From the NCBI GenBank assembly GCA_965232515.1, contig CBDDPY010000002.1, positions 896,001 to 960,000 of the forward strand: DNA of 64,000 bases, in the 5' to 3' direction. The number at the start of each line of letters is the position of its first letter. The first letter of the stretch is position 1. The stretch is from Alphaproteobacteria bacterium. Lineage in GTDB: Bacteria > Pseudomonadota > Alphaproteobacteria > GCA-2731375. Shown piece by piece: positions 14,927 through 49,027 of the stretch. Below the pieces are notes generated by a model. That model made no database searches and was not told where the DNA came from. It saw only the letters and a program-made list of their open reading frames with translations. The position numbers were made by a program, and so were the translations under genes.

Positions 14927-15454
14927 TTGAATACGCAGCCCGCACCGGTCCTTCAGACAACCCGATATCACTGGCAGGGCGAGGCGCCGGATCCGGTCGC
15001 CATTCCGGCGCTGTTCGAGGGCACGCGCTGGCGTCGGGTCGTGGCCTACCTGATCGACGTCTTTATCGTCGTGTGTCTGGCCGGCCTGCTCTGGCTGGCC
15101 GGATCGGTTTTCATCGTGCTCACCCTCGGCGCACTGACGCCATTGGTCGTGATCTGCGCGGCTCTGCTGCCCATCGCCTATCACACCTTCTTTATCGGCG
15201 GACCGCGGAACGCCACGCTCGGCATGCAGATGATGGATCTGCGGGTCGTGGCCTGGAACGGCAACCGGCCGAGCTATCTGCAGGCGGCAATCCAGACGGC
15301 GCTGTTCTATCTGACGGTGCCGACCACGAACGGCCTGATCCTGCTGGTTTCGCTGTTCAACGATCGCGGCCGCTGCGTGCACGAGATGCTGTGCGGTACC
15401 TTGACCATCAACGACCTGGTGCTGCCCGAGATCGAGGGCCCGCGCGACCGCTAG
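14927..15454 (+). CDS. RDD family membrane protein
   Basis: RRVVAYLID and ATLGM motifs; TTG start after GGAGGAGG. Confidence 0.85.
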   Translation: MNTQPAPVLQTTRYHWQGEAPDPVAIPALFEGTRWRRVVAYLIDVFIVVCLAGLLWLAGSVFIVLTLGALTPLVVICAALLPIAYHTFFIGGPRNATLGMQMMDLRVVAWNGNRPSYLQAAIQTALFYLTVPTTNGLILLVSLFNDRGRCVHEMLCGTLTINDLVLPEIEGPRDR

Positions 15455-16734
15455 AGCAGATCGCGCAGCCGATACCAGCTCGTCGCCAACACCAGCAGCG
15501 GCCGACGGAGCAGCGCGCCGCCCGGAAACCGCTTGTGCGGAATGCGGGCGAACACGTCGAACCGCTCCGCGGTGCCCGCAACCAGTTCGGCCAGGATCTG
15601 GCCGGCGAGGCAGGTCAGCGTGACGCCCTGACCGGAAAATCCGTGCACGTAGAAGATCCTGTCGGAGAGCCGACCGAAGCGCGGCAGGCGGTTTCGGGTA
15701 ATCGCCACGTGACCGCCCCAGACATGGGCAAGGCTGACATCAGCGAGCTGCGGGAAGGTGGCCAGAATGCGCCGCTGCATGGCGGCGGCGAGGTCGCGCG
15801 GGTCGCGGCCGTGATAGGCGACCCGGCCACCGAACAACAGGCGCCGGTCCTCGGACAGCCGAAAATAGTCCAGCACAATGTTCGTGTCCGACACGCAGAG
15901 ATCGCCGGGCATCAACGCCCCGGCCCGCTCCGCACTCAGCGGTTCGGTTGCGGCGATATAGGTGCCGATCGGCATGATCTCGCCGCGCATGTTCGGCGGC
16001 ATCGGTTCGAGATAGGCATTGCCGCACAGCAGTAAGTGATCGGCCCGGACCGAACCGTCGTCGGTTTGGACCGTGACGGTCTCTCCATCCGTGAAGCACC
16101 GTGCCGCTGTCTGCTCGTAAATCTGCACGCCGGCGTCGGCGGCGGCCCGGGCGAGGCCGAGACAGAGCTTCAAGGGGTTCAGGTGCCCGCTGCCGAGGTC
16201 GCGCAGCCCGCCGACGAAACGCGGGCTGTCGACCAGTTGTCGGACCCCGTCGACATCGACCAGATCGGCCTTGTCGTAGCCCCAGCGCCCGGCGACCAGG
16301 TCCAGCTCCTCGGCTAGCTCGGGCATGTGGCGGGGCTTGGTCGCCGCCAGCAGATAGCCGTCGCGGCGGCCGCAATCGATGCAATGGCGGTCGATCAACG
16401 CCTGCTGCAGACGCATGGCCTTCAGGCTGAAATCCCATAGGCGCCGTGCATCCGCTTCACCCACCAGCTCCAGGACCCGAACCATGCCCGGCGAATAGCC
16501 CAGCAGGGCCTGGCCGCCGTTACGCCCCGATCCGCCCCAGCCAATCCGGTTCGCCTCCAACAGCGCCACCTGATAGCCGCGCTCGGCCAGGTGCAGCGCC
16601 GCCGACAGGCCGGTGAACCCGCCGCCAACGACGCAGACATCGACCCTCCGGTCGCCCGCCAGCGCCGCGAACTGCGGCTGCGGCGACGTGGAAACAGCGT
16701 AGAAGGAGTCGACGTGCTCGGCCCGAGCCGTCAA
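15451..16734 (-). CDS. FAD-dependent amine oxidoreductase (PuuB/OrdL-like, DAO family)
   Basis: GGGFTGLSAA, GSGRNGGQ, HLNPLKL, DYFRLSED, GFSGQG. Confidence 0.88.
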   Translation of the reverse strand: MTARAEHVDSFYAVSTSPQPQFAALAGDRRVDVCVVGGGFTGLSAALHLAERGYQVALLEANRIGWGGSGRNGGQALLGYSPGMVRVLELVGEADARRLWDFSLKAMRLQQALIDRHCIDCGRRDGYLLAATKPRHMPELAEELDLVAGRWGYDKADLVDVDGVRQLVDSPRFVGGLRDLGSGHLNPLKLCLGLARAAADAGVQIYEQTAARCFTDGETVTVQTDDGSVRADHLLLCGNAYLEPMPPNMRGEIMPIGTYIAATEPLSAERAGALMPGDLCVSDTNIVLDYFRLSEDRRLLFGGRVAYHGRDPRDLAAAMQRRILATFPQLADVSLAHVWGGHVAITRNRLPRFGRLSDRIFYVHGFSGQGVTLTCLAGQILAELVAGTAERFDVFARIPHKRFPGGALLRRPLLVLATSWYRLRDLL

Positions 16735-19124
16735 TTGGGCCTCAGGATCAGCGTGCCCATGGCGCCGGGCTCGAAATCGCTGCGACGCGTCGTCATTGGC
16801 AGATATTCGCCGTTGCTCCAGGGCTCGGCGAAGTTCCGGTAGAGCGGCGACAGGATATTGCCGGACTGACCGGTGGAATGCATGAACAGCGAGCGGTCCG
16901 GATCGTCAAGGTCGTAGATCGCTCGCAAGCTGGCCGCGTGCACGTTGGCGAAGGGCGCGGCGGCGTCGTTCAGCCGATGCTGGCCGACATTGACCGTATA
17001 GGTGCCGCCCGGCGTCGGCACCTTGATATCGAACAGCCGTGCCAGATAGCTCACTTGCGAAAACGGCCGGTGCTTGCCATGCGCGTAGTGCGCATCGCCC
17101 CAGCGCCATTTTTCGGGATCGTCGCCGTAATGCTCGGCGATCCAATCCATTGCCAGCTCCAGCGCGCGGACGATCTGTTCGTCACAGGTTTCACGACTGT
17201 CGGTCGGCACTTCGTTGCACCAGATGTCCTGGCCGTTCTCCAGTACGTTGCGTACGAAACGGACCCGCTTGCGCCAGGCGCCTTGGAACAGATCGCCCAG
17301 CTCGTCGGCATAGATCAGGCGGGTCAGTTCGCGGTACCAGGCGCTGAAGATCAACGGCTCGGCGGCGTCGCGCCGCATGACCCCGTCCCAGGCCGAGAGC
17401 CGCGCATGCGCCCGGCGCGCCGTCTCCGTTCGCGGCGCCGGGCGTAGCAGCCGCGGCAACAGTTCCTGCGCCATCAGTGATGTCACGTCGGCCTGCAGTG
17501 CCTTGAAGCTCTCGATCGAATGCCGGTCGCGGGCGACCAGCAACTGCCGAATCCGTCGCACGCGGTAGTCGTCGGCCCACTCGTAGGTCAGGTGATAGGG
17601 ATAGTCATCGCGCACGATCTTGTGGTTCGCCGTGGCGATCATGCCGTCGCGCGGATTGAACCGGCGAGGCAGGTCGTCGAACGGAATGAAGCCGGTCCAG
17701 TCGTAGGTCGCATCCCAGCCGGGCTGCGGCATCATGCCCTTAATGCGGTTCGTCCGTTTGCGGACCGGTACCCGGGCCGGCGCGGCGAAACCGATATTGC
17801 CGTCGATGTCGGCATAGACGATGTTCTGCTGCGGCCCGTGGAAATCGGTCAGCGCATCTTTGAACTCGGCCCAGTTCTGCGCCAGCGCCAGCTTGAGGCC
17901 GCCCTGCGCGGTCATGTCGTCGTCCCGCAAAGCCGTCCAGGCCAGCGACAGCACATGGTCCTCGGGCACGGCAGACGCGGCACGGCGCGACGCGTCGGAG
18001 ATCACCGGGCCGTGCCGCGTCTCGCGCACGTCGATGACGATATCCTCGCCATCCTTGACCTTGATGATTTCCTGCCGCGTCTCGAACGCCCGCGAACCGC
18101 CGGGCGCCATGTATTTGTTCGGGTCGTCCGGGTCGAGCCGTTCGACATAGAGGTCCTGCACGTCGGGATTCGTGTTCGTGAAGCCCCAGGCGATCTTGCG
18201 GTTGCGGCCGAGCACCACCGAGGGCAGGCCCGGGAAAGTGGCGCCGATCAGATCGTTGTCGGGCCAGCTCAAATGCGCGAAATACCAGACCGACGGTACG
18301 GTCAGGCCGAGATGCGGATCGTTCGCCAGCAGTGGCTTGCCGGTGGCCGTGCGGCTGCCGCCGACAACCCAGTTGTTGGAGCCGGCGCCTTCGCCCAGCG
18401 GATGCACGGAATCGTCCCACAACGCGGCCAGGATCGAGTCCGAGATCAGGCCGCCGGAAGCGCGGGCGGCGGCGACGCCCCGCAGGCCCTCGCGGCCATA
18501 GGGCGCGAAGAACTGACTCAGCTGCGTGTCGCTCAACCGGTCCGCCAGGCGATAGCGCAACAGCTCCGATGTCCAGTTGGCGGCGAGATCGAGCGCCATA
18601 ACCTTGGTCCAGGTCAGGCTGTCGGCGACGGTCCAGGGCTCGGGCTCTATGCCGACCAGCAGAAACTCGAGCGGCAGCGGCCCGCTGCGCTGTTCCAGGA
18701 AGGCATTCACGCCCGCCGTATAGGCGTCGAACATCGCTCGAGTCTCGGGCTCGAATTTATCGAACGCGGCGATGGCGTGGCGGCGCAATCCCAGAGTGCG
18801 TAGGAATACATCATGGCCCACGGTCGCGGCGCCGAGCGCCTCCGACAGCCGTCCGGCGCCGATGCGCCGGTTCATCTCCATCTGCCAGAGCCGGTCCTGG
18901 GCGTGCACGAAGCCGAGGCCGAAGGCGGCATCGTCCCTGGTCTCGGCGAAGATATGCGGCACGCCATGACGATCGCGGACGATTTCGATCGGCCGTTCGA
19001 GGTTCGCCAGCTCGATCTCGCCGTCGACATCGGGCAGCGATCCGCGCAGCCAGAAATAGCCACCGGCGACGAGCAACACGATGGCCGCGACCACGCCAAT
19101 CAGTCCGCGCAGGACCCACTTCAT
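16731..19124 (-). CDS. Penicillin acylase family Ntn-hydrolase with N-terminal anchor
   Basis: RDRHGVPHI, AQDRLWQM, autoprocessing site GAG|SNNWVV, LLANDPHL, TGQSG. Confidence 0.93.
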   Translation of the reverse strand: MKWVLRGLIGVVAAIVLLVAGGYFWLRGSLPDVDGEIELANLERPIEIVRDRHGVPHIFAETRDDAAFGLGFVHAQDRLWQMEMNRRIGAGRLSEALGAATVGHDVFLRTLGLRRHAIAAFDKFEPETRAMFDAYTAGVNAFLEQRSGPLPLEFLLVGIEPEPWTVADSLTWTKVMALDLAANWTSELLRYRLADRLSDTQLSQFFAPYGREGLRGVAAARASGGLISDSILAALWDDSVHPLGEGAGSNNWVVGGSRTATGKPLLANDPHLGLTVPSVWYFAHLSWPDNDLIGATFPGLPSVVLGRNRKIAWGFTNTNPDVQDLYVERLDPDDPNKYMAPGGSRAFETRQEIIKVKDGEDIVIDVRETRHGPVISDASRRAASAVPEDHVLSLAWTALRDDDMTAQGGLKLALAQNWAEFKDALTDFHGPQQNIVYADIDGNIGFAAPARVPVRKRTNRIKGMMPQPGWDATYDWTGFIPFDDLPRRFNPRDGMIATANHKIVRDDYPYHLTYEWADDYRVRRIRQLLVARDRHSIESFKALQADVTSLMAQELLPRLLRPAPRTETARRAHARLSAWDGVMRRDAAEPLIFSAWYRELTRLIYADELGDLFQGAWRKRVRFVRNVLENGQDIWCNEVPTDSRETCDEQIVRALELAMDWIAEHYGDDPEKWRWGDAHYAHGKHRPFSQVSYLARLFDIKVPTPGGTYTVNVGQHRLNDAAAPFANVHAASLRAIYDLDDPDRSLFMHSTGQSGNILSPLYRNFAEPWSNGEYLPMTTRRSDFEPGAMGTLILRPN

Positions 19125-20171: not shown

Positions 20172-21284
<1,113 letters not shown>

Positions 21285-21416: not shown

Positions 21417-22556
21417 ATGGATTTCGAACTGAGCGAAGAGCAGCGCGCCTTCCAGGACATGGCGCGGCAATTCGCAAGCGAGCAGATGGCGCCGCACGCC
21501 GAGGAATGGGACGCCAAGTCGATCTTCCCGGTCGACGCCCTGCGCGCGGCCGCCGCCCTCGGCTTCGGCGGCATCTATGTGCGCGACGACGTCGGCGGCT
21601 CCGGTCTCGGACGGCTCGACGCCACCATCATCTTCGAAGAGCTGTCGGCCGGCTGCACTTCCACCGCGGCCTATATCTCGATCCATAACATGGCCGCCTG
21701 GATGATCGACCGCTATGGCAACGACGACCAGCGCCAGAAGTGGCTGCCGGATCTTTGCAGCATGGCGCACTTCGCCAGCTATTGCCTTACGGAGCCGAAT
21801 TCGGGCTCGGACGCGGCCAGCCTGCGCACCAAGGCCGTGCGCGACGGCGACGACTATGTGCTGAATGGCAGCAAGGCCTTCATTTCCGGCGGCTCCACGT
21901 CCGACATCTACGTCTGCATGGTGCGCACCGGCGACGACGGCCCGGGCGGCATCAGCTGCCTCGTCGTCGAGAAGGACACGCCGGGCCTGTCGTTCGGCGC
22001 GCTGGAAAAGAAGATGGGCTGGCACTCGCAGCCGACGGCAATGGTGATCTTCGAGGACTGCCGGGTGCCGGTCGCCAACCGCATCGGCGAAGAGGGCGAC
22101 GGCTTCAAGATCGCCATGCAGGGTCTCGACGGCGGCCGGCTCAATATCGCCGCCTGCTCGCTGGGCGCCGCCCAGGCGAGCCTCGACGAGTCTCGCGAAT
22201 ACATGTCCAACCGTCAGCAGTTCGGCCGCGAGCTGAGCCAGTTCCAGGCCCTGCAGTTCCGCATCGCCGACATGGCGACCGAGCTCGAGGCCGCGCGCCT
22301 GATGCTGCGCCGGGCCGCCGCCAAGGTCGATGCCAAGGCGACGGACGCCACGCTGCACGCCGCCATGGCCAAGCGTTTCGCCACCGACGTCGGCTTCAAC
22401 GTGGTTAACGAGGCGTTACAGCTCCACGGCGGCTACGGCTATCTCAGCGACTACGGCATCGAGCGCCGGCTGCGCGACGTCCGCGTGCACCAGATCCTGG
22501 AAGGCACCAACGAGATCATGCGGGTGATCATCGCCCGCCAGATGCTGTCGTCATGA
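21417..22556 (+). CDS. Isobutyryl-CoA dehydrogenase-like acyl-CoA dehydrogenase
   Basis: [41 protein letters not shown]; valine catabolism operon context. Confidence 0.9.
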
Positions 22557-23602
22557 GCGGCGACGACGACATCCTGTTCGAGCGCCGCGGCCGGATCGCG
22601 CTCGTCACGCTGAACCGACCGAAGGCGTTGAACGCGCTGACGCTGGAGATGTGCCGGGCGCTGGAGGCCGAGCTGAAGGCCTACGCCGACGATCCCGCCG
22701 TCGCCGCGGTGGTGGTGCAGGGCGCCGGCGACCGGGCCTTCTGCGCCGGCGGCGATATTCGCCGGCTCTACGACGAGGGCAAGGCCGGCGGCGGCTATCC
22801 CTTCGACTTCTACCGCGACGAATACCGGCTGAACGCGCTGATCTTCCACTTCCCGAAGCCTTACGTCGCGCTGATGGACGGCATCGTCATGGGCGGCGGC
22901 GTCGGGGTATCCGTGCACGGCTCGCACCGCATGGTGACCGAGCGGGTGATGTTCGCCATGCCCGAGACCGGCATTGGGCTGTTTCCGGACGTCGGCGGCA
23001 GCTACTTCCTGCCCCGCTGCCCCGGCCGTCTCGGACTCTACATGGCCATGACTGGCGCCCGACTGAAGGCGGCTGATGCTGTGCATGCCCGCCTCGGCGA
23101 TGCCTATGTGCCGAGTGACAAGCTTGACGCCCTGATCGATGCCCTGGCCGAGGTCAACCAAGACGATGTCGGACAGGTGCTGGACGGCTTCCGCGAGGAT
23201 CCCGGTCCGGCGCCGATTGGCGAGCGGCAAGCCGACATTGATCGGTTTTTCGCGGCCGACGATGTCGAGGCCATCCTCTCGGCGCTTGACGCAGACGCCG
23301 GCGACTGGGCGGCCGAGGCGGCGGCGACCATTCGGCAGAAATCGCCGACCAGCCTGAGAATTGCCGCCGAGCAGCTCCGTCGCGGCGCTGCGCTCGAGTT
23401 CGACGACTGCATGCGCATGGAGTACCGCATGGCCTGCGGCTGCATCGCCGGTCATGACTTCTACGAGGGCGTTCGCGCCGTGGTCGTCGACAAGGACCAG
23501 GCCCCGAAATGGCGCCCCGACACCCTGGACGGGGTGACCGACGACGACATCCGGGCCTATTTCGAGACACCCGGCCAGGGCGGCGATTTGAGCTTCGAAT
23601 AG
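22553..23602 (+). CDS. 3-hydroxyisobutyryl-CoA hydrolase (crotonase fold)
   Basis: [38 protein letters not shown]. Confidence 0.9.
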
Positions 23603-23659
23603 CGGCCGGACGCTGACCCGCGCCGGCCCGTTTCATCGGTATTCATCGGGAGGAACGAC

Positions 23660-24550
23660 ATGACCAAGATCGGATTCATCGGCGTCGGCAACATGGGCGG
23701 TCCCATGGCCAAGAACCTCGTCAATGCCGGCCATGAGGTGAAGGCCTTCGACCTGTCGCAGGCAGCGCTCGATGCCGCCGTCACGGCCGGCGCGGCCGCG
23801 GCCACGTCGATCGCCGATGCCGCGAGCGGGGTCGAGGTCGTGATCAGCATGCTGCCTGCCGGCCAGCATGTCCGCAGCGTCTATCTGGACGAGGGCGGCA
23901 TCGTCGGGGCGGCGGCCGCCGGCACGCTGTTCATCGATTCCTCGACCATCGACGTCGACAATGCCCGCGCCGTTGCCAAGGCCGCCGGCGAGGCCGGATT
24001 CGAGATGATCGACGCGCCCGTCTCGGGCGGTGTCGGCGGCGCCGAGGCCGGCACGCTCACCTTCATGTGCGGCGGCTCGGAGGATGCGTTCGCCACGGCC
24101 AAGCCGCTGCTGGACGTGATGGGCAAGACCATCGTGCTGGCCGGCCCGTCCGGCAACGGCCAGGTCGCGAAGATCTGCAACAACATGATCCTCGGCGCCT
24201 CGATGATCGCCGTCGCGGAAGCCTTCGTCATGGCCGAGAAGCTCGGCCTCGACCATCAGAAGCTGTTCGACATCAGCTCCACCGCCTCGGGCCAGTGCTG
24301 GGCCATGACCAGCTATTGCCCGGTGCCGGGTCCGGTGCCCGCGTCACCCGCGAACCGGGATTACCAAGCCGGCTTCACGGCCGCGATGATGGCGAAAGAC
24401 CTGCGCCTGGCCCAGGAGGCGGCCCAGAGTGTGCGCGCCGCCACGCCGCTGGGCGCGGCCGCCGCCGCCGTCTACTCGCTTTACGAGAATGCGGGCAACG
24501 GCGATGTCGACTTCAGTGGCGTCATCCGCATGATCCGCGGCGAGAAATGA
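23660..24550 (+). CDS. mmsB: 3-hydroxyisobutyrate dehydrogenase
   Basis: GVGNMGGPMA, DAPVSGG, KICNNM, YCPVPGPVP.SPANRDY. Confidence 0.93.
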   Translation: MTKIGFIGVGNMGGPMAKNLVNAGHEVKAFDLSQAALDAAVTAGAAAATSIADAASGVEVVISMLPAGQHVRSVYLDEGGIVGAAAAGTLFIDSSTIDVDNARAVAKAAGEAGFEMIDAPVSGGVGGAEAGTLTFMCGGSEDAFATAKPLLDVMGKTIVLAGPSGNGQVAKICNNMILGASMIAVAEAFVMAEKLGLDHQKLFDISSTASGQCWAMTSYCPVPGPVPASPANRDYQAGFTAAMMAKDLRLAQEAAQSVRAATPLGAAAAAVYSLYENAGNGDVDFSGVIRMIRGEK

Positions 24551-24604
24551 AGGGTTCTTTAACTACCTGATTGCATACTGGCCGGCCTGAGAGGGAGCTA
24601 GAGA

Positions 24605-25120
24605 ATGCTGGCCAGAGACGTTGCGGACCGACCGGGTTCTGGAGCCGATACCACTTCGGATGCCGACAAGCGGCTCTATCTGGAAGCGCTGTTGCTGATC
24701 GAGCGGCTGCACCGTCGGCTGCTGGACGTGCTCAAGGCCGAGCTGGACAATGTCGGGCGCAACGACATCAACAACGTCCAGGCGCTGATCCTGCACAATA
24801 TCGGCGACGAGGAAGTGACGGTCGGCGAGCTGACCAACCGCGGTTACTATCTCGGCTCGAACGTCTCCTATAACGTCAAGAAGCTGGTCGAGAACGGTTA
24901 TCTCCTGCAGGAACGCTCGCCGCACGACCGCCGCTCGGTCCGGGTCCGGCTGTCGGAGAAGGGCCTGCAGCTGCACGGCCAGGTCAACGCGCTGTTCGAA
25001 CGGCATGTCGCCGCGCTGCGCCAGCAGGACGAGCTCGATATGCGCGAGCTGAGCGGCACCAACACGGCGCTGCGCGGCCTCGAGAGCTTCTGGAGCGCCC
25101 AGGTCCGTTTCGGCGGCTAA
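24605..25120 (+). CDS. ldtR: MarR-family regulator, LdtR-like
   Basis: ERLHRRLLDV...DINNVQAL...GELTNRGYYLGSNVSYNVKKL matches the alphaproteobacterial LdtR family as recalled. Confidence 0.8.
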   Translation: MLARDVADRPGSGADTTSDADKRLYLEALLLIERLHRRLLDVLKAELDNVGRNDINNVQALILHNIGDEEVTVGELTNRGYYLGSNVSYNVKKLVENGYLLQERSPHDRRSVRVRLSEKGLQLHGQVNALFERHVAALRQQDELDMRELSGTNTALRGLESFWSAQVRFGG

Positions 25121-25232
25121 GCCGTCAACTCATCCCTTTGAACGTCCCTGCCGCGGGTGCCTTCACCCGCGCCTTGTCTCGCGCGCGCCAACGCGTTAGA
25201 TCACGCCGTCGCAACGGGCGGAGGCAGGGATC

Positions 25233-26513
25233 ATGGAACCACATCAGGGCTATTTCACGGCGGACCTCGCCAGCATCGATCCGGTGGTCCATGACGCCAT
25301 TACCGAGGAACGCAAACGGCAGCAAAACCAGATCGAGCTGATCGCGTCCGAAAACATCGTCAGCCGCGCGGTCCTGGAAGCCCAGGGCAGCGTGCTCACC
25401 AACAAGACCGTCGAGGGCTATCCCGGCCGGCGCTATCACGGCGGCGCCTCCAACGTCGACGTCATCGAACGGGTCGCCATCGAGCGGGCCTGCGAACTGT
25501 TCGGCTGCCGCTTCGCCAACGTCCAGCCGCATTCCGGGACCCAGGCCAACCAGACCGTGTTCCTGTCGCTGCTGCAGCCGGGGGACACGGTGCTGGCCAT
25601 GGACCTGAAGGCCGGCGGCCACTTGAGCCACGGCGCCGCGCCGAACATGTCCGGCAAATGGTTCGACATCGTGCACTACGGCGTGCGCCGGCAGGACGGT
25701 CTGATCGACATGGACGAGGTGGCGGCGCTGGCCGACAACCACAAGCCGAAGCTGATCATCGCCGGCGGCTCGTCCTATCCGCGCGCCATCGACTTCGCCC
25801 GCTTCCGCCAGATCGCCGACGCCGTCGACGCGACCTTCCTGGTCGATATGGCGCACTTCTCGGGCCTGGTCGCGGGCGGCGTCTATCCGCACCCGTTCCC
25901 ACATGCCCATATCGCCACCACGACCACCTACAAGGCGCTGCGCGGCGCGCGCGGTGGCATCGTCCTGACCAACGACGAGGCAATGGCCAAGGCGATCAAC
26001 TCGGCGCTGTTCCCCGGCATGCAGGGCAGCCCCATGCTGCACCTAATGGCCGGCAAGGCCGTCTGCCTGGGCGAGGCGCTGCGGCCCGAGTTCAAGGACT
26101 ATGCCGGCCGCGTGCTGGCGAACGCGCGGGCACTGGCCGAGGCCTTGGTCGCGGACGGTATCGATGTGGTGACCGGCGGCACCGACACGCCGATCGTGCT
26201 GGTCGACCTGCGGGCCCTCGGCCTGAAGGGCAACACGGCTTCGGAATGGCTGGAGAGCGTCGGCCTGACCTGCAACAAGAACGGCGTGCCGTACGATCCG
26301 GAGAAGCCCGGCGTCACCTCCGGTCTGCGCCTTGGCGCGTCTGCCGGCAGCACCCGCGGCTTCGGCGTGTCTGAGTTCGAGACCGTCGGCCGGCTGATCG
26401 CCCGCATGCTGCACGCCATGGCGGCGGATGGCGACCAGTCCGCCGTCGCCGACGAGGTGCGGGCCGAGGTGCAGGCGCTCTGCGGCCGCTTCCCGATCTA
26501 TCCGGACGTCTGA
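25233..26513 (+). CDS. Divergent serine hydroxymethyltransferase-family enzyme (possible alpha-methylserine hydroxymethyltransferase)
   Basis: SHMT fold motifs ELIASEN, NVQPHSG, GGHLSHG, DMAH, NKN retained; non-canonical [33 protein letters not shown]. Confidence 0.9.
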
Positions 26514-26953
26514 GGCACGCCGGCCGGCATGCGCATCACGACCGTTTGACGTAGCCACAGCGCCGCGGCCAGTCCCCAGGCCGCGTTGAACAGCACGACC
26601 AAGAACGGCGTCGCCGCGCCCAGGCCGAAGCCGAGCAGGCCCGCCGGGGTCTTCAACGGGAACACCAACAGGAGCTGAACGGCCGTCGGGCCGAGGCTGA
26701 GCAGCAGGCCCTGCGCCCACCAGGGCCAGCCGGGCCGCGCGATCAGGAACAGGAAGCCCCACAGCCCGCCCCAGACGATCCTGGGATAGAGCCAATCCGG
26801 CGTCAGCGCCGGCGCAATGGCGACGCCCAATGCCTGTGTCACGCCAAGCGCGCCGAATGCCCAGACCAGCAGACTGTTGGCGACGGCGCCCAGGCAGCCG
26901 GCCGCGAACGCCGCCGACACCCGCGGCGACAGGTTCTGCGATATCGCGTTCAT
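26498..26953 (-). CDS. Hypothetical 4-TM membrane protein
   Basis: Hydrophobic ORF with [13 protein letters not shown]; ATG 26953 preceded by AAGGAGGG. Confidence 0.75.
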
Positions 26954-27065
26954 TAAACGCTTTCCCTCCTTGAGTGATGAACCCAACGGGTTCTTGTCAG
27001 GAGGTACGCGGGACGCTGTCGATCCTTCCGCGCCGGCGCGGCGCCGCACGCAAATGTGAGCGGGC

Positions 27066-27935
27066 TTAGCCGCCGAGGCCCATCTGCGCCAGGATCGCTT
27101 TTACCGCCGGCTTGTCGGGCTCGCCCAGGACGGCGGTCATGGTGAAGTGGTCTTCGCCGGGCATCTCCTGGTAGTCGTGCGCAATGCCGCGCTCGCGGCA
27201 AAGCGCCGAATAGTCGCGCGACTGCTTGATCCATTCCTCGGTCTCGGCAGCGCCGACAAGGATGGTAAGAGGCAGGGCGCGGAGCGGCGGGTTTTTCATC
27301 GGGCTGACCCCATCGATCTGGTCCGGGGTCAGGCGGATCAGGTCGTTCACGGAGATACCAAGCACCGGTTCGGGGTCGTAGACGCCGGTCAGGAGCACGG
27401 CGCCCTTCACCACATCGGCCGGCAGTTCGTCGGCCGTCCAGTCGTGCGCCAGCGCCATGGCGCAGAGATGGCCGCCGGCCGAGTTGCCGGAGATGTAGAT
27501 CCGGTCGGGATCGCCGCCATACTGGCCGATGTTGAGATAAGTCCAGGCGATGGCGCGCACGGCCTCGAGCACGATGTCGCCGACTCTGACGTCGGGGCAA
27601 AGGTCGTAGTTGGCGATCACCACCATGGCGCCGGCCGCGACCAGGGGCTCGGCCATGAAGGTCACGTCGGCCTTGTCCTGCGCCCGCCAGTAGCCGCCAT
27701 GGAAATAGATGTGCACCGGCGCTCGGTCGCGCGCTGCGGGACGGAAGATGTCGAGGGTTTCTTTCGGTCCCGGCCCGTAGCGCACGTCATGGACGCCATT
27801 GAGCCGCGACCGGGCCGCAGCCGACGCGGCGGCGCGCGAGTCGATCTTGGCCTGGTGGTCGGGCACCGCGACCCGCGGATTGTACTGTCGCTCGAACTCG
27901 TCCTGCGAATAGCCTCTCAGATCAACCATCGGCAT
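27066..27935 (-). CDS. Alpha/beta hydrolase, kynurenine formamidase (arylformamidase)-like
   Basis: YNPR, YGPGPKETLDIF, HGGYW oxyanion motif, GNSAG nucleophile, DHF catalytic His. Confidence 0.85.
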   Translation of the reverse strand: MPMVDLRGYSQDEFERQYNPRVAVPDHQAKIDSRAAASAAARSRLNGVHDVRYGPGPKETLDIFRPAARDRAPVHIYFHGGYWRAQDKADVTFMAEPLVAAGAMVVIANYDLCPDVRVGDIVLEAVRAIAWTYLNIGQYGGDPDRIYISGNSAGGHLCAMALAHDWTADELPADVVKGAVLLTGVYDPEPVLGISVNDLIRLTPDQIDGVSPMKNPPLRALPLTILVGAAETEEWIKQSRDYSALCRERGIAHDYQEMPGEDHFTMTAVLGEPDKPAVKAILAQMGLGG

Positions 27936-28895: not shown

Positions 28896-30110
28896 TCAGC
28901 CGGTGAAGGCCTGGATGCCCGTTTGCGCCCGTCCCAGAATCAGCGCGTGGATATCGTGCGTACCCTCATAGGTGTTCACCGTTTCGAGGTTAATCACGTG
29001 CCGCATCACGTGATATTCGTCTGAGATCCCGTTGCCGCCGTGCATGTCCCGCGAGACCCGGGCGATATCCAGCGCCTTGCCGCAGGAATTGCGCTTGATC
29101 AGCGAGATCATTTCCGGCGCCGCGCGGTGCTCGTCCATCAGGCGCCCCACGCGCAGGCAGGACTGCAGGCCGATGGAGATCTCGGTCTGCATGTCGGCCA
29201 GCTTCTTCTGCACGAGCTGCGTCGCCGCCAAGGGGCGGCCGAATTGATCGCGATCGAGCGTGTATTGCCGCGCCGCATGCCAGCAGAATTCCGCCGCCCC
29301 CAGCGCGCCCCAGGCTATGCCATAGCGGGCACGGTTCAGGCAGCCAAACGGCCCGCCCAGGCCGCGCGCGTTCGGCAGCTTGTTCTCCTCGGGCACGAAC
29401 ACGTCTTCCAGCACGATCTCGCCGGTGATCGAGGCGCGCAGCGACAGCTTGCCCTCGATCTTCGGCGTCGAGACCCCCTTCATGCCGCGCTCGACGATGA
29501 AGCCGCGGATGACGTCCTCGTCGTCCTTGGCCCAGACCACGGCGACATCCGCGATCGGCGAGTTGGTGATCCACATCTTGGCGCCGTTCAGCACATAGCC
29601 GCCGTCGGCCTTACGGGCACGGGTCTTCATGCCGCCGGGGTCGGAGCCGTGGTCCGGCTCGGTCAGGCCGAAGCAGCCGACCCATTCGCCGCTTGCCAGC
29701 TTGGGCAGGAACTTCTGCCGCTGCGCCTCGCTGCCATACGCATTGATCGGATGCATGACCAGGCTCGACTGCACGCTCATGGCCGAGCGGTAGCCGCTGT
29801 CGACGCGCTCGACCTCGCGCGCGACCAGGCCGTAGGAAACGTAGTTCACGCCGGCGCAGCCATAGCCCTCGATGGTCGAGCCCAGCATGCCGAGCTCGCC
29901 CAGCTCGTTCATGATCTCGCGGTCGAAGCGCTCCTCGCGGGTCGCCATCAGGATCCGCGTCATCAGCTTCTCGGTGCAGTATTCGCGCGCCGTGTCGCGG
30001 ATCAGCTTTTCCTCCTCGGTCAGCTGATCGTCGAGCAGGAAGGCGTCGTCCCATTGGAACGATGCCATGGCGCTGGGCTTGGCGGACGTGGGCGCGGAGG
30101 CTGTGGTCAT
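28896..30110 (-). CDS. gcdH: Glutaryl-CoA dehydrogenase
   Basis: [47 protein letters not shown]. Confidence 0.93.
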
Positions 30111-30164
30111 CTCATCTTCTCCCAAAGGCGGGCGTCTGGCGCCGCCTGTCTTGATTAGCGCGGC

Positions 30165-30793: not shown

Positions 30794-32005
30794 ATGGATT
30801 ACGAAAAGATCTTCGCTGAGCGTATTGCCGCACTGAAAGACGAGGGACGCTATCGCGTCTTCGCCGACCTGTCCCGACGCACGGGCGAGTTCCCGCATGC
30901 GACGCGGCACACGACCCAGGGCGAGCGCGACGTCGTCGTCTGGTGCTCGAACGACTATCTCGGCATGGGTCAGCACCCTGTCGTGCTCGAGGCCATGCAC
31001 GAGGCCGTCGACAAGATGGGCGCCGGTTCGGGCGGCACGCGGAACATCTCCGGCACAACGCACTACCATGTGCTGCTGGAGCAGGAGCTCGCCGATCTGC
31101 ACGGCAAGGAAGCGGCGTTGCTGTTCACGTCGGGCTATATCTCCAATGATGCGACGCTCAGCACGCTCGCCAAGGTCCTGCCGGGCTGCATCATCTTCTC
31201 CGATGAGCTGAACCACGCCTCGATGATCCAGGGCATCCGCAACGGCGGCTGCGCGAAACATATCTTCCGGCATAACGACGTCGCGCATCTGCGCGAGCTG
31301 TTGGCCGCGGCGCCGGCCGACGCGCCCAAGGTCGTGGCCTTCGAATCGGTCTATTCGATGGGCGACGGCGTGGCGCCGATCGCCGAGCTCTGCGACGCGG
31401 CCGAGGAATTCGGCGCCCTGACCTATCTCGACGAGGTTCACGCCGTCGGCATGTACGGCCCGCGCGGCGGCGGCGTCGCCGAGCGCGACGGCGTGATGGA
31501 CCGACTCGATATCATCGAGGGCACGCTGGCCAAAGGCTTCGGCGTGATGGGCGGCTACATCACCGCGTCGGCCAATCTGGTCGATGTCGTCCGTAGCTAT
31601 TCCTCGGGCTTCATCTTCACGACCTCGCTGGCCCCCGCCTTGACGGCCGGCGCGCTCGCGAGCGTGCGCTACCTGAAGAACTCGCCGCTCGAGCGCCAGC
31701 AACAGCAGGAGCGGGCCACCCGCCTGAAGGAACTGTTGGAGGAGGCGGGGCTGCCGGTGATGACGTCGGGCAGCCATGTCGTACCGGTCATCGTTGGCGA
31801 CGCGGTTCTCTGTAAGCAGGTCTCGGACGAACTGCTGGATGAGCACGGCATCTATGTGCAGCCGATCAATTTCCCGACCGTACCGCGGGGCACCGAACGG
31901 CTGCGCTTCACGCCGGGTCCGCTGCATTCCGACGCGCTGATGCACGACCTGGTGGCGGCGCTGAATCAGGTCTGGTCCCGTCTCAACCTGAAGCGGGCCG
32001 CCTAG
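30794..32005 (+). CDS. hemA: 5-aminolevulinate synthase
   Basis: [44 protein letters not shown]; GAGGAGG RBS. Confidence 0.97.
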
Positions 32006-32342: not shown

Positions 32343-32768
32343 CTAAGCGGCGTTGCGGCGCCGGCCCAGGCCGATCTTCTTGGCGAACTTCGACCGCTGC
32401 GTCGAATAGTTCGGCGCCACCATCGGATAGTCGGGCGGCAGGTTCCATTTCGCCCGATACTCCTCGGGCGTCATGTCGAACTTCGTCCGCAGATAGCGCT
32501 TCAGCATCTTCAGCTTCTTGCCGTCTTCCAAGCAGACGATGTATTCGGGCGTCACCGACTTACGAACCGAAACAGCCGGCTTCGGCGCACTTTCCTTTAT
32601 CTTTTCGTCGGCCGTCTCGATACCGGCCAAGGACTGATGGACCGTCCGAATTAAATCCGGAATGTCAGAGGCAGGCAGGGAGTTAAAACTGACATAAGCC
32701 GATACGATGTCACTGACCATACGCAACATTTCTTTGTTCGAAACGACGGCTTCGTTGTCTACGCTCAT
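32343..32768 (-). CDS. mucR: MucR/Ros family nucleoid-associated regulator
   Basis: DIVSAYVS, PAVSVRKSV, CLEDGKKLKMLKR, YPMVAPNYS...AKKIGLG. Confidence 0.95.
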   Translation of the reverse strand: MSVDNEAVVSNKEMLRMVSDIVSAYVSFNSLPASDIPDLIRTVHQSLAGIETADEKIKESAPKPAVSVRKSVTPEYIVCLEDGKKLKMLKRYLRTKFDMTPEEYRAKWNLPPDYPMVAPNYSTQRSKFAKKIGLGRRRNAA

Positions 32769-33149: not shown

Positions 33150-34463
33150 ATGTCACTTTCCGACGCCGCCCATTCGTCCAATGGTGCTGCGGTTTTCTTT
33201 ACCCAGGAACTTGCCGCGCGCGATCCAGATCTCTTCGCCAGCATCGTCGCGGAACAGCGGCGGCAGCAGAACCAGATCGAGCTGATCGCGTCGGAAAACA
33301 TCGTCAGCCACGCCGTGCTGCAGGCGCAAGGCTCGGTGCTGACCAACAAGTATGCCGAAGGCTATCCCGGCCGTCGCTACTACGGCGGTTGCGAGCATGT
33401 CGACGTTGCCGAACGGCTGGCCATCGAGCGGGCGACCAAACTGTTCGATTGCGCCTACGCCAACGTGCAGCCGCACTCCGGCGCGCAGGCGAATCAGGCC
33501 GTCTACATGGCGCTGCTGAAACCGGGCGACACCACGCTCGGCCTGTCGCTGGCGGCCGGCGGCCACCTGACCCATGGCGCGCCGCCCAATCAGTCGGGTA
33601 AATGGTTTAACGCGGTGCAGTACGGCGTCCGCGAGGACGACCATCTGATCGACTTCGACGAAGTCGAACGGTTGGCGTGGGAGCATAAGCCAAAGCTGAT
33701 CATCGCTGGCGGCTCGGCCTATCCGCGGGTAATCGATTTTGCCCGCTTCCGCGAGATCGCCGACCAGGTCGGCGCTTACCTGCTGGTCGACATGGCGCAT
33801 TTCGCCGGCCTGGTGGCGGGCGGCGCCCATCCGAGCCCCTTGCCGCATGCGCACGTGGTGACGACGACGACACACAAGACCTTGCGCGGACCGCGCGGCG
33901 GCATGGTGCTGTCGAACGACCTCGATCTCGGCAAAAAGATCAACTCGGCCGTCTTTCCCGGCTTGCAGGGCGGTCCGCTGATGCATGTGATCGCCGCAAA
34001 GGCCGTTGCCTTTGGCGAGGCGTTAACGCCTGAGTTCGCCGGCTATGCCCGCGCCGTCGTCGACAACGCGCACGCGCTCGCCGAGGTCTTGCGCGAAAAC
34101 GGCTTCGACATCGTCTCAGGCGGCACAGACACGCATGTCGTGCTGGTCGACCTCCGGCCCAAGGGACTGAAAGGCAACGACGCCGAACAGGCGTTGGAGC
34201 GGGCCGGCATCACCTGCAACAAAAACGGCGTGCCGTTCGATCCGGAAAAACCGACTGTGACTTCGGGCGTCCGCCTCGGTACGCCGGCGGGCACCACGCG
34301 CGGCTTCGGCGTCGCCGAGTTCCGCCAGGTCGGCCAGCTGATCGCCGAAACCCTGGCCGGATTTGCCGCCAACGGCGCCGACAATGCGGCGACCGAAGAC
34401 CGGGTGCGCGGCGAGGTGGAGGCGCTCTGCGCCCGCTTCCCGATCTATCCGGCAGGGGCCTGA
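33150..34463 (+). CDS. glyA: Serine hydroxymethyltransferase (canonical)
   Basis: [43 protein letters not shown]; heads nrdR-rib operon; start chosen at ATG 33150. Confidence 0.97.
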
Positions 34464-48950: not shown

Positions 48951-49027
48951 CGGAGCGTAGCGCAGCCTGGTAGCGCATCACACTGGGGGTGTGGGGGTCG
49001 CCGGTTCGAATCCGGCCGCTCCGACCA
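48951..49027 (+). tRNA. tRNA-Pro (anticodon GGG)
   Basis: 77-nt cloverleaf: CGGAGCG/CGCTCCG acceptor stem, loop CT-GGG-GG, GGTTCGAATCC T arm, encoded CCA. Confidence 0.97.

Follow-up and report, generated by a model that had tools for sequence, protein, structure and literature searches.

We identified a second full-length serine hydroxymethyltransferase (SHMT) gene, here called SHMT2, on contig CBDDPY010000002.1 of an alphaproteobacterial genome (GenBank assembly GCA_965232515.1). The stretch analyzed, referred to as the window, is 64,000 nucleotides long (contig positions 896,001 to 960,000), and coordinates given without a contig name are positions within it. SHMT2 occupies 25233..26513 on the plus strand and encodes a protein of 426 amino acids. 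Translation, profile matches and trees place this protein in a large, uncharacterised clade with threonine at position 55 and tyrosine at position 228, directly before the lysine that binds pyridoxal 5'-phosphate (PLP). We refer to this group as the Tyr-Lys clade. SHMT2 is intact, under purifying selection and accessory, and its clade is, judged by the sequences of its members, a distinct conserved subfamily. On present evidence SHMT2 is a Thr/His-type, methylserine-like SHMT homologue and not a categorically new enzyme. It may well be a tetrahydrofolate (THF)-dependent hydroxymethyltransferase for an alpha-substituted serine analogue, in which case it would not serve as the housekeeping serine/glycine enzyme.

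Active site of SHMT2

The SHMT2 open reading frame (ORF; 25233-26513, plus strand) comprises 426 codons with no internal stop, and a Shine-Dalgarno-like GGAGG was read from the sequence 8 nt 5' of the ATG (25220..25224, plus strand). The product matches the Pfam SHMT profile PF00464 with 487.5 bits (cut-off 27, profile positions 2-399 of 399) and NCBIfam NF000586 with 562.3 bits (cut-off 335, positions 1-404 of 404). It scores under the cut-offs of the glycine hydroxymethyltransferase equivalog NF010094 (428.3 bits versus 735) and of the fluorothreonine transaldolase TIGR04506 (114.3 bits versus 650). The canonical glyA of the window (33150..34463, plus strand, with 33150 as the probable start) is located 6.6 kb downstream of SHMT2 and served as the comparator. 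It carries the motifs NKYAEG, RYYGGC, TTTTHK and QGGP, groups with canonical alphaproteobacterial copies in the trees, and is followed by nrdR-like and then ribD-like ORFs; SHMT2 is 67% identical to it (280/419). The genome to which the window belongs (G000, four contigs) also contains a third SHMT paralogue, adjoining a histidine-kinase-like ORF at G000:C2:6860195-6861388 (locus L003 1462-2730, minus strand). This paralogue shares 46% identity with SHMT2 and has the canonical motifs NKYAEG, RYYAG, TTTHK and QGGP.

We numbered residues by alignment of E. coli GlyA (b2551) with 316 relatives. In SHMT2, Thr replaces Tyr55 (T59 in its own numbering), His replaces Tyr65 (H69), Ala replaces Cys68 (A72), Ser replaces Thr128 (S132), Tyr replaces His228 (Y233), Ser replaces Gly263 (S266) and Ser replaces Pro367 (S370). 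On the alignment, the first two changes fall in the NKTVEG...RYH segment at 25401..25439, with T59 encoded at 25407-25409 and H69 at 25437-25439. The codons for Y233 and the PLP lysine K234 are at 25929..25934 and that for S266, which gives QGSP, is at 26028..26030, all on the plus strand. A preliminary description of this DNA, made from the sequence alone, had proposed a second SHMT with a remodelled active site, and the profile matches together with Y55T, Y65H, H228Y, G263S and P367S bear this out. Every motif change that it listed is present in the sequence, including NKYAEG to NKTVEG, RYYGG to RYHGG, QGGP to QGSP and RLGTPA to RLGASA. Two of the changes are not specific to the clade: position 234, where SHMT2 has Ala for Pro, is polymorphic among canonical SHMTs (P31/A25/G2 of 58), and T230A is SHMT2's own variant of a position that is otherwise Ser or Asn.

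The residues that bind the cofactors are retained. The PLP set of S97-G98, H126, S175, D200, H203, T226, K229 (K234 of SHMT2) and R235 is kept in SHMT2 and is invariant across 94 type-A and 49 type-B members of the clade (the two subtypes are defined below). SHMT2 also keeps the folate and carboxylate ligand positions S35, E57, Y64, L121, G125, L127, N347 and R363, and likewise H129. Across the 143 clade members, E57, Y64, L121, G125, L127 and N347 vary little or not at all. All 16 PLP and folate ligands checked are retained, in keeping with the earlier claim that the PLP lysine, Glu57, the folate loop and the carboxylate-binding Arg survive. We take E57, Y64, L121, G125, L127, N347 and the related positions to be folate ligands from the structural literature on the E. 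coli enzyme. A folate-ligand role is also stated for SHMT in PMC10098953.

An alignment of 121 sequences, consisting of the 120 best database matches (query included) and the window's own glyA, separates into 58 canonical proteins and 63 with derived residues, and eleven columns split the two groups cleanly. Tyr55, Tyr65, Cys68, Thr128, His228 and Gly263 are each invariant in 58/58 canonical relatives, as is Pro367, whereas the derived group has Thr55 in 62, His65 in 57, Ala68 in 60, Ser128 in 63, Tyr228 in 63 and Ser263 in 61 of its members. The sharing of derived states across 63 homologues indicates that the substitutions did not arise by chance. Residue 228 is Tyr in 91/94 type-A and 49/49 type-B proteins (140/143 for the clade as a whole), His in 58/58 canonical relatives and Thr in 115/115 methylserine-type proteins. 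The exceptions inside the Tyr-Lys clade include L061 and L067 (Gammaproteobacteria/Arenicellales), with Thr before the PLP lysine, and L084, with Phe; in L061 and L067 the methylserine-type state was apparently reached independently. In the E. coli enzyme, His228 controls reaction specificity, which becomes looser when this residue is mutated.

Conservation, accessory status and phylogeny

To estimate the extent of the clade, we scanned one genome per species from 185,579 species for the pattern NKT[VI]EG or TTTTYK. The scan returned 378 matching stretches, of which 358 were confirmed as relatives. The best 80 of the matches, or 81 loci counting the window, were examined further. Position 55 is Thr or Ser in 80/80 of these loci and position 228 is Tyr in 77/80. 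Two subtypes can be distinguished: type A, with His65 and QGSP (38 loci, counting the window), and type B, which keeps Tyr65 and has Asn230, Val234 and QGSV (43 loci). Three of the 24 genomes related to that of the window at family level carry clade members, namely G026 (94% identity, partial), G027 (74%) and G033 (70%); of the other 17 loci from these relatives, 16 are canonical by motif and one is unresolved by pattern. Every clade member seen is annotated plainly as 'serine hydroxymethyltransferase'. None of the solved structures falls in the Tyr-Lys clade, and the best match of SHMT2 in the PDB, 3ECD (552 bits), is canonical.

SHMT2 is maintained by selection. Against the same-genus genome G026, its ratio of nonsynonymous to synonymous substitution rates (dN/dS) is 0.115 over 212 codons, compared with 0.077 over 303 codons for glyA. 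In contigs of about 96% identity from other public runs, 35 of 40 listed differences fall at third codon positions. One could argue that SHMT2 is a decaying or non-functional duplicate of glyA, given its proximity to that gene and the loss of three otherwise invariant residues. We reject this explanation: the frame and ribosome-binding site are intact, the 'lost' residues are replaced alike across hundreds of lineages, and the shared substitutions (63/121 homologues, 358 loci) together with the dN/dS value rule it out. The preliminary description had named missing homologues and relaxed dN/dS as the signs of such decay; homologues are abundant and dN/dS points to purifying selection, so that its proposal of a distinct conserved subfamily stands.

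The SHMT2 copy in G026:C620 (locus L153 3283-3397) breaks after 637 bp into an inverted copy of itself near the contig end, which is probably an assembly artefact. Contigs from two RNA-Seq libraries filed under another organism (X4 and X17) are 95-97% identical to the window over 26 and 11, respectively, of 30 bins of 23660-27049, which is not proof of transcription; two polyA libraries (X21 and X24) gave 0 reads, which counts as no test. The G+C fraction of SHMT2 (0.67-0.70) is the same as that of its flanks, and there is no compositional sign of a recent horizontal arrival.

All 25 clade-carrying genomes tested also hold an SHMT with Tyr55, Tyr65 and His228; 23 of these companions are fully canonical and two are divergent, at about 30% identity. 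SHMT2 is therefore accessory, and a role for the clade as the sole or housekeeping SHMT is ruled out in these 25 genomes. A distance of 3-13 kb separates SHMT2 from glyA on a shared contig in the window, and the same holds for six further genomes (G002, G003, G010, G011, G021 and G033).

For comparison with methylserine hydroxymethyltransferase (MSHMT), we chose as representative the SHMT-like glyA2 gene that Pseudomonas hunanensis Teo1 carries on its TRIS-degradation plasmid. The study describing it proposes a conversion of 2-hydroxymethylserine to D-serine and considers it most similar to confirmed methylserine hydroxymethyltransferases (PMC10848231); the MSHMT reaction (EC 2.1.2.7) is given in a review (PMC7918591). 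The Teo1 enzyme and 114 relatives form a Thr-Lys clade with Thr55 in 112/115 and Phe64, His65 and Thr228 each in 115/115. Homologues on plasmids of Ensifer adhaerens (p1), Paracoccus aminophilus (pAMI5) and a Ruegeria have the same Thr-Lys states (3/3), and the comparison with MSHMT was made through them and the Teo1 enzyme. SHMT2 is 54-62% identical to the methylserine-type proteins (Teo1 and plasmid homologues). It shares with them the SHMT fold, Thr55, His65, Ala/Gly68, Ser128, Ser263, Cys at window position 278 and the same PLP and folate ligands. It differs from them in having Tyr instead of Thr before the PLP lysine, Tyr64 (window Tyr68) instead of Phe64, and QGSP where they have QGSA, QGSL or QGSI. 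The separation from the methylserine type that was first suggested from the single sequence thus extends to the whole clade.

We constructed two IQ-TREE phylogenies under the C20 mixture model (50 and 44 rows) and one with FastTree (111 rows). In each of the three trees the Thr55 proteins group as a single clade within alphaproteobacterial glyA, supported by a Shimodaira-Hasegawa-like approximate likelihood ratio of 100 in both IQ-TREE trees and by a local support of 100 in FastTree. In the mixture-model tree that includes the plasmid homologues, the Thr-Lys clade (support 100) and the Tyr-Lys clade (support 85) branch as sister groups. SHMT2 falls inside the Tyr-Lys clade and outside the Thr-Lys clade in the mixture-model trees. 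A phylogeny with GlyA and methylserine-type enzymes, as the preliminary description advised, thus resolves SHMT2 as a member of a sister group of the Thr-Lys clade, with a joint support of 100.

Predicted reaction of SHMT2

The closest published parallel to the Thr/His motif is the PbzB-type group of SHMT homologues (PbzB, FmoH, AsmD and XvbB), defined by TAEG--RYH in place of YAEG--RYY (Shi et al., PMC10098953). The NKTVEG...RYHGG of SHMT2 agrees with this motif (T-x-EG ... RYH). PbzB forms 2-hydroxymethylserine from L-Ser, D-Ser or Gly and methylene-THF (mTHF); its Thr68 and His78 were modelled as enlarging the pocket, and a T68Y/H78Y variant was inactive (PMC10098953). The products of PbzB-type enzymes are 2-hydroxymethylserine or alpha-methylserine, with mTHF (PMC10098953, PMC13351049). 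According to a 2026 review, FmoH depends on tetrahydrofolate, and in vitro it turns alpha-methyl-L-serine into D-alanine (PMC13351049). A review of threonine aldolases states that Y55T widens the donor range to D-Ser and D-Ala, with D-Ser given for the SHMT of S. thermophilus (PMC4761611), in agreement with the earlier statement that this substitution alters donor specificity.

PbzB-type genes reside in nonribosomal peptide synthetase (NRPS) clusters, whereas SHMT2 has a core chromosomal context with no NRPS among its annotated neighbours. The apo-PbzB structure 7QWZ is absent among the best 60 of 87 PDB matches of SHMT2 (E<=1e-30) and among 56 PDB matches of the Teo1 enzyme (E<=1e-90), suggesting that PbzB is more distant than canonical SHMTs. 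The PbzB-type set is known here by its published motif, and the Thr/His motif that it has in common with SHMT2 may be convergent. In this respect the earlier proposal of a new enzyme holds in part: the Thr/His motif was already published as PbzB-type, whereas for tyrosine before the PLP lysine, and for a partner gene of the PhyH family (below), we found no published description in the open-access literature searched. The same searches found neither a described Tyr-Lys clade nor a PhyH-SHMT operon.

We envisage that an old duplication of alphaproteobacterial glyA gave rise to the SHMT2 lineage, and that the duplicate gained Thr for Tyr55 and, mostly, His for Tyr65, which would enlarge the pocket beside the substrate C-alpha. 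The lineage would then have split into a Thr-Lys branch, comprising the methylserine and 2-hydroxymethylserine enzymes with D-serine ammonia-lyase, FolD and PurU, and a Tyr-Lys branch that includes SHMT2. As all the PLP and folate ligands checked are kept, we read SHMT2 as carrying out folate-dependent hydroxymethyl transfer. Thr55, together with His65, would open the pocket for a second substituent at C-alpha, so the substrate is predicted to be an alpha-substituted serine analogue and the product D-configured. The reaction would be R-C(NH2)(COOH)-CH2OH + THF <-> D-configured amino acid (R at C-alpha) + 5,10-methylene-THF. Folate dependence, a substrate of the alpha-substituted or D-amino-acid type and coupling to the hydroxylase described below are all inferred; the substrate class, which the preliminary description gave as D- or alpha,alpha-disubstituted amino acids, is deduced from active-site residues, phylogeny and gene neighbours.

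SHMT2 resembles canonical GlyA (E. coli b2551, the window's glyA and 3ECD) in length, fold, PLP lysine and PLP, folate and carboxylate ligands, and differs from it in Y55T, Y65H, C68A, T128S, H228Y, G263S and P367S and in being accessory instead of housekeeping. It could alternatively be a condition-specific isozyme for L-serine and glycine whose substitutions tune kinetics or regulation. The retention of all PLP, carboxylate and folate ligands, the 67% identity to glyA and the frequent location within 3-13 kb of that gene are compatible with this, as is the placement of some type-B loci beside formate-THF ligase and a GcvT-like gene. PbzB, too, still turns over glycine and L-serine, although its kcat for L-Ser is 4200-fold below that of GlyA (PMC10098953). 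We consider an isozyme doubtful: Tyr55, Tyr65 and His228 are invariant in 58/58 canonical relatives, the two tyrosines are described as crucial for efficient conversion in GlyA (PMC10098953), the clade never provides the sole SHMT in the 25 genomes tested, and the hydroxylase-LysR operon of relatives would have no role in the interconversion of serine and glycine.

Hydroxylase partner, genomic context and implications

A PhyH-family gene lies on the same strand and within 60 bp of the SHMT gene in 34 of the 81 loci, comprising 27/38 of type A and 7/43 of type B. It is upstream of SHMT in 32 and downstream in two, and stop and start codons often abut or overlap; this linkage was not part of the preliminary description. 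The linked hydroxylases are PhyH-family Fe/2-oxoglutarate dioxygenases of about 262 aa with 57-79% mutual identity, and in several loci a LysR gene is divergent from the PhyH-SHMT pair. Their nearest solved relatives are 7E01/7DZZ, labelled 'phytanoyl-CoA dioxygenase' (E 3e-54), the leucine hydroxylase 5NCH (5e-44) and ectoine hydroxylases (1.5e-38 and higher); 7DZZ/7E01 are presumably proline trans-4-hydroxylases. One ESM Atlas cluster near the hydroxylase is auto-named 'L-proline 4-hydroxylase'. Nine type-A loci, among them the window, have enough upstream flank but no adjacent hydroxylase. The window's genome does encode a hydroxylase orthologue, at G000:C2:6173425-6174198, about 5.25 Mb from SHMT2 and 54-68% identical to the linked ones, and the LysR gene divergent from it (GcvA/DsdC-type) encodes a product 40-48% identical to the linked LysRs. 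In this locus (L143, G000:C2:6164000-6183500), two D-cysteine-desulfhydrase/1-aminocyclopropane-1-carboxylate (ACC)-deaminase-family (CuyA-like) genes and a TauE-type exporter adjoin. In L033, too, the LysR-PhyH-SHMT unit is preceded, at a distance of about 6 kb, by a CuyA-like gene (57% identical).

In most type-A relatives, the upstream PhyH hydroxylase would presumably make the SHMT substrate by hydroxylating a methyl group, under control of the divergent LysR. We tentatively suggest, as a possibility, that the Tyr-Lys SHMT and the hydroxylase constitute a two-enzyme catabolic module in which an alpha-methyl group of a 2-aminoisobutyrate-like, other alpha-methyl or D-amino-acid-derived compound is hydroxylated, the resulting hydroxymethyl group is passed to THF, and a D-amino acid is released. 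Relatives would thus hydroxylate and then remove a one-carbon (C1) unit within one linked module; in the window's own genome the hydroxylase and LysR genes are unlinked and SHMT2 follows a MarR-type regulator. The partnership sets SHMT2 apart from the methylserine type, in which glyA2 of Teo1 adjoins dsdA (D-serine dehydratase), folD and purU, the Ensifer p1 homologue adjoins D-serine ammonia-lyase, FolD and PurU, and the Paracoccus pAMI5 homologue adjoins D-serine ammonia-lyase; SHMT2 has none of D-serine ammonia-lyase, FolD or PurU as a neighbour, and its relatives pair with the PhyH hydroxylase.

The same gene pair might instead be read as a hydroxylase and a retro-aldolase, in which PhyH hydroxylates C-beta of a free amino acid and SHMT2 cleaves the C-alpha-C-beta bond to give glycine and an aldehyde, the enlarged pocket accommodating the side chain. 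Carnitine synthesis offers an analogue in trimethyllysine hydroxylase and hydroxy-trimethyllysine aldolase. The overlapping or nearly abutting stop and start codons in the 34 loci would suit such a pair, the solved relatives of the hydroxylase all act on side chains of free amino acids or on ectoine, and the valine/isobutyryl-CoA genes that precede SHMT2 could take up a branched aldehyde. We nevertheless find an aldolase unlikely. A folate-independent aldolase would have no need of E57, Y64, L121, G125, L127 and N347, which are kept in the 143 members; published work links Thr55 to the C-alpha and not the C-beta substituent (PMC4761611, PMC10098953); the sister clade carries out C1 transfer; and the valine-gene context is confined to SHMT2's own sub-lineage.

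Other PLP chemistry has a precedent in AibC of Rhodococcus wratislaviensis, which is annotated as an SHMT but is an alpha-aminomethylmalonate decarboxylase without hydroxymethyltransferase activity (PMC7782822). As described, AibC resembles the present case in being an SHMT paralogue of alpha,alpha-disubstituted amino acid catabolism that acts after a methyl hydroxylase, although that hydroxylase is a diiron monooxygenase and the partner in SHMT2 relatives a 2-oxoglutarate dioxygenase (PMC7782822). An aminomalonate-type decarboxylation, or racemisation or transamination of D-amino acids, might also be imagined for SHMT2 because His228, whose mutation makes the E. coli enzyme less specific, is replaced and because the hydroxylase orthologue of its genome adjoins the two D-cysteine-desulfhydrase/ACC-deaminase-family genes. 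Such activities seem very improbable given that the folate ligands are conserved, that the nearest characterised relatives by tree are hydroxymethyltransferases, and that no aminomalonate-making dehydrogenases are conserved beside the SHMT gene.

Several observations weigh against hydroxymethyl transfer from an alpha-substituted serine analogue. No natural alpha-substituted amino acid is known to be abundant enough to account for about 350 lineages from sea and soil. Compounds of the 2-aminoisobutyrate type would suit the chemistry, yet they appear too scarce for so widespread a clade. Type B keeps Tyr65 and is seldom linked to the hydroxylase (7/43), and the Tyr-Lys clade may be functionally non-uniform. 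Tyr228 and Tyr64 of SHMT2 are unlike all 118 Thr-Lys sequences examined, which have Thr228 and Phe64. Monophyly of the Tyr-Lys proteins with respect to the Thr-Lys clade is only moderately supported (85-93), and FastTree puts the Thr-Lys clade beside SHMT2's own sub-lineage (support 96), a sister relationship that was not reproduced under the mixture model and that we do not claim. Among the ORFs annotated at 14-36 kb of the window there is no hydroxylase, D-amino-acid lyase, FolD or PurU, so the pathway context is borrowed from relatives. Finally, PbzB also accepts L-serine and glycine (PMC10098953), and the Thr/His motif is thus compatible with serine/glycine chemistry.

In the window, SHMT2 follows a MarR-family (LdtR-like) regulator gene 112 nt upstream (24605..25120, plus strand; NF047395 206.5 bits, below the cut-off of 250, with Pfam MarR and HTH_27 matches). 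This pair is preceded by a valine-catabolic run (21417..24550, plus strand) of acyl-CoA dehydrogenase, 3-hydroxyisobutyryl-CoA hydrolase and, as its last gene, 3-hydroxyisobutyrate dehydrogenase (23660..24550, plus strand; TIGR01692 410 bits, cut-off 291.6). The order 3-hydroxyisobutyrate dehydrogenase-MarR-SHMT2 is kept in G026 and G033 (L009), and the MarR gene is upstream in L028; the valine-gene neighbourhood recurs solely in SHMT2's own sub-lineage. Further genes around SHMT2 encode hemB (20172-21251, minus strand), a glutaryl-CoA-dehydrogenase-like protein (28896-30125, minus), 5-aminolevulinate synthase (30794-32005, plus), an enzyme that consumes glycine, and a MucR/Ros-like protein (32343-32768, minus). 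The recurrence of hemB and glutaryl-CoA dehydrogenase beside Tyr-Lys SHMT genes elsewhere (L008, L019, L043 and others) points to an old conserved synteny.

A 183-aa ORF with hydrophobic stretches (26498-27049, minus strand) shares 16 nt, as called, with the 3' end of SHMT2 on the opposite strand; it has no Pfam or NCBIfam match and no homologue in 80 related loci. Farther upstream, genes for a penicillin-acylase-family protein (16731-19124, minus strand; weak PvdQ match) and an FAD amine oxidase (15451-16734, minus strand; weak pipecolate-oxidase match) overlap by 4 nt in an operon-like arrangement. An Rfam scan of the window found no family at gathering score near SHMT2, the sole match being a tRNA at 48951-49024. 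A consensus scan of 24400-27200 returned 0 promoters and 0 terminators, a result that is uninformative at 67% G+C.

Two other arrangements recur in the clade. In L059, L065, L066, L068 and L035 (Magnetovibrio-like), the genes preceding the type-B SHMT gene encode formate-THF ligase and a divergent GcvT-like aminomethyltransferase, and a gene for a class-III aminotransferase follows it. The order RidA-PhyH-SHMT-DUF4743/NUDIX-MATE is kept in L014, L021, L025, L031, L040, L041 and L056. These loci are labelled Acidiferrobacterales, Gammaproteobacteria and Nitrospira, and their SHMTs are closely related across phylum labels, which points either to movement of the cassette as a unit or to wrongly binned contigs.

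Biocatalysts for alpha-tertiary amino acids are being sought among SHMT homologues able to form or break quaternary alpha-carbons, of which only a handful (MSHMT, FmoH and PbzB) have been characterised. The SHMT2 clade adds a large conserved sister group that is set apart by the residue next to the catalytic lysine and, in relatives, by a hydroxylase partner of its own. We suggest that SHMT2 merits biochemical follow-up, and as the window's genome holds both SHMT2 and an unlinked hydroxylase orthologue, both can be studied from one genome. Identifying the substrate would correct the blanket annotation as 'serine hydroxymethyltransferase' and would reveal natural alpha-substituted or D-amino acids metabolised by carriers of the clade. 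If the proposed module is real, it would represent an oxidative C-demethylation that feeds the C1 pool. Its presence in about 350 species-level lineages of marine and soil Alphaproteobacteria, Gammaproteobacteria, Nitrospirota and others would then imply that a natural pool of alpha-substituted amino acids has gone unnoticed.

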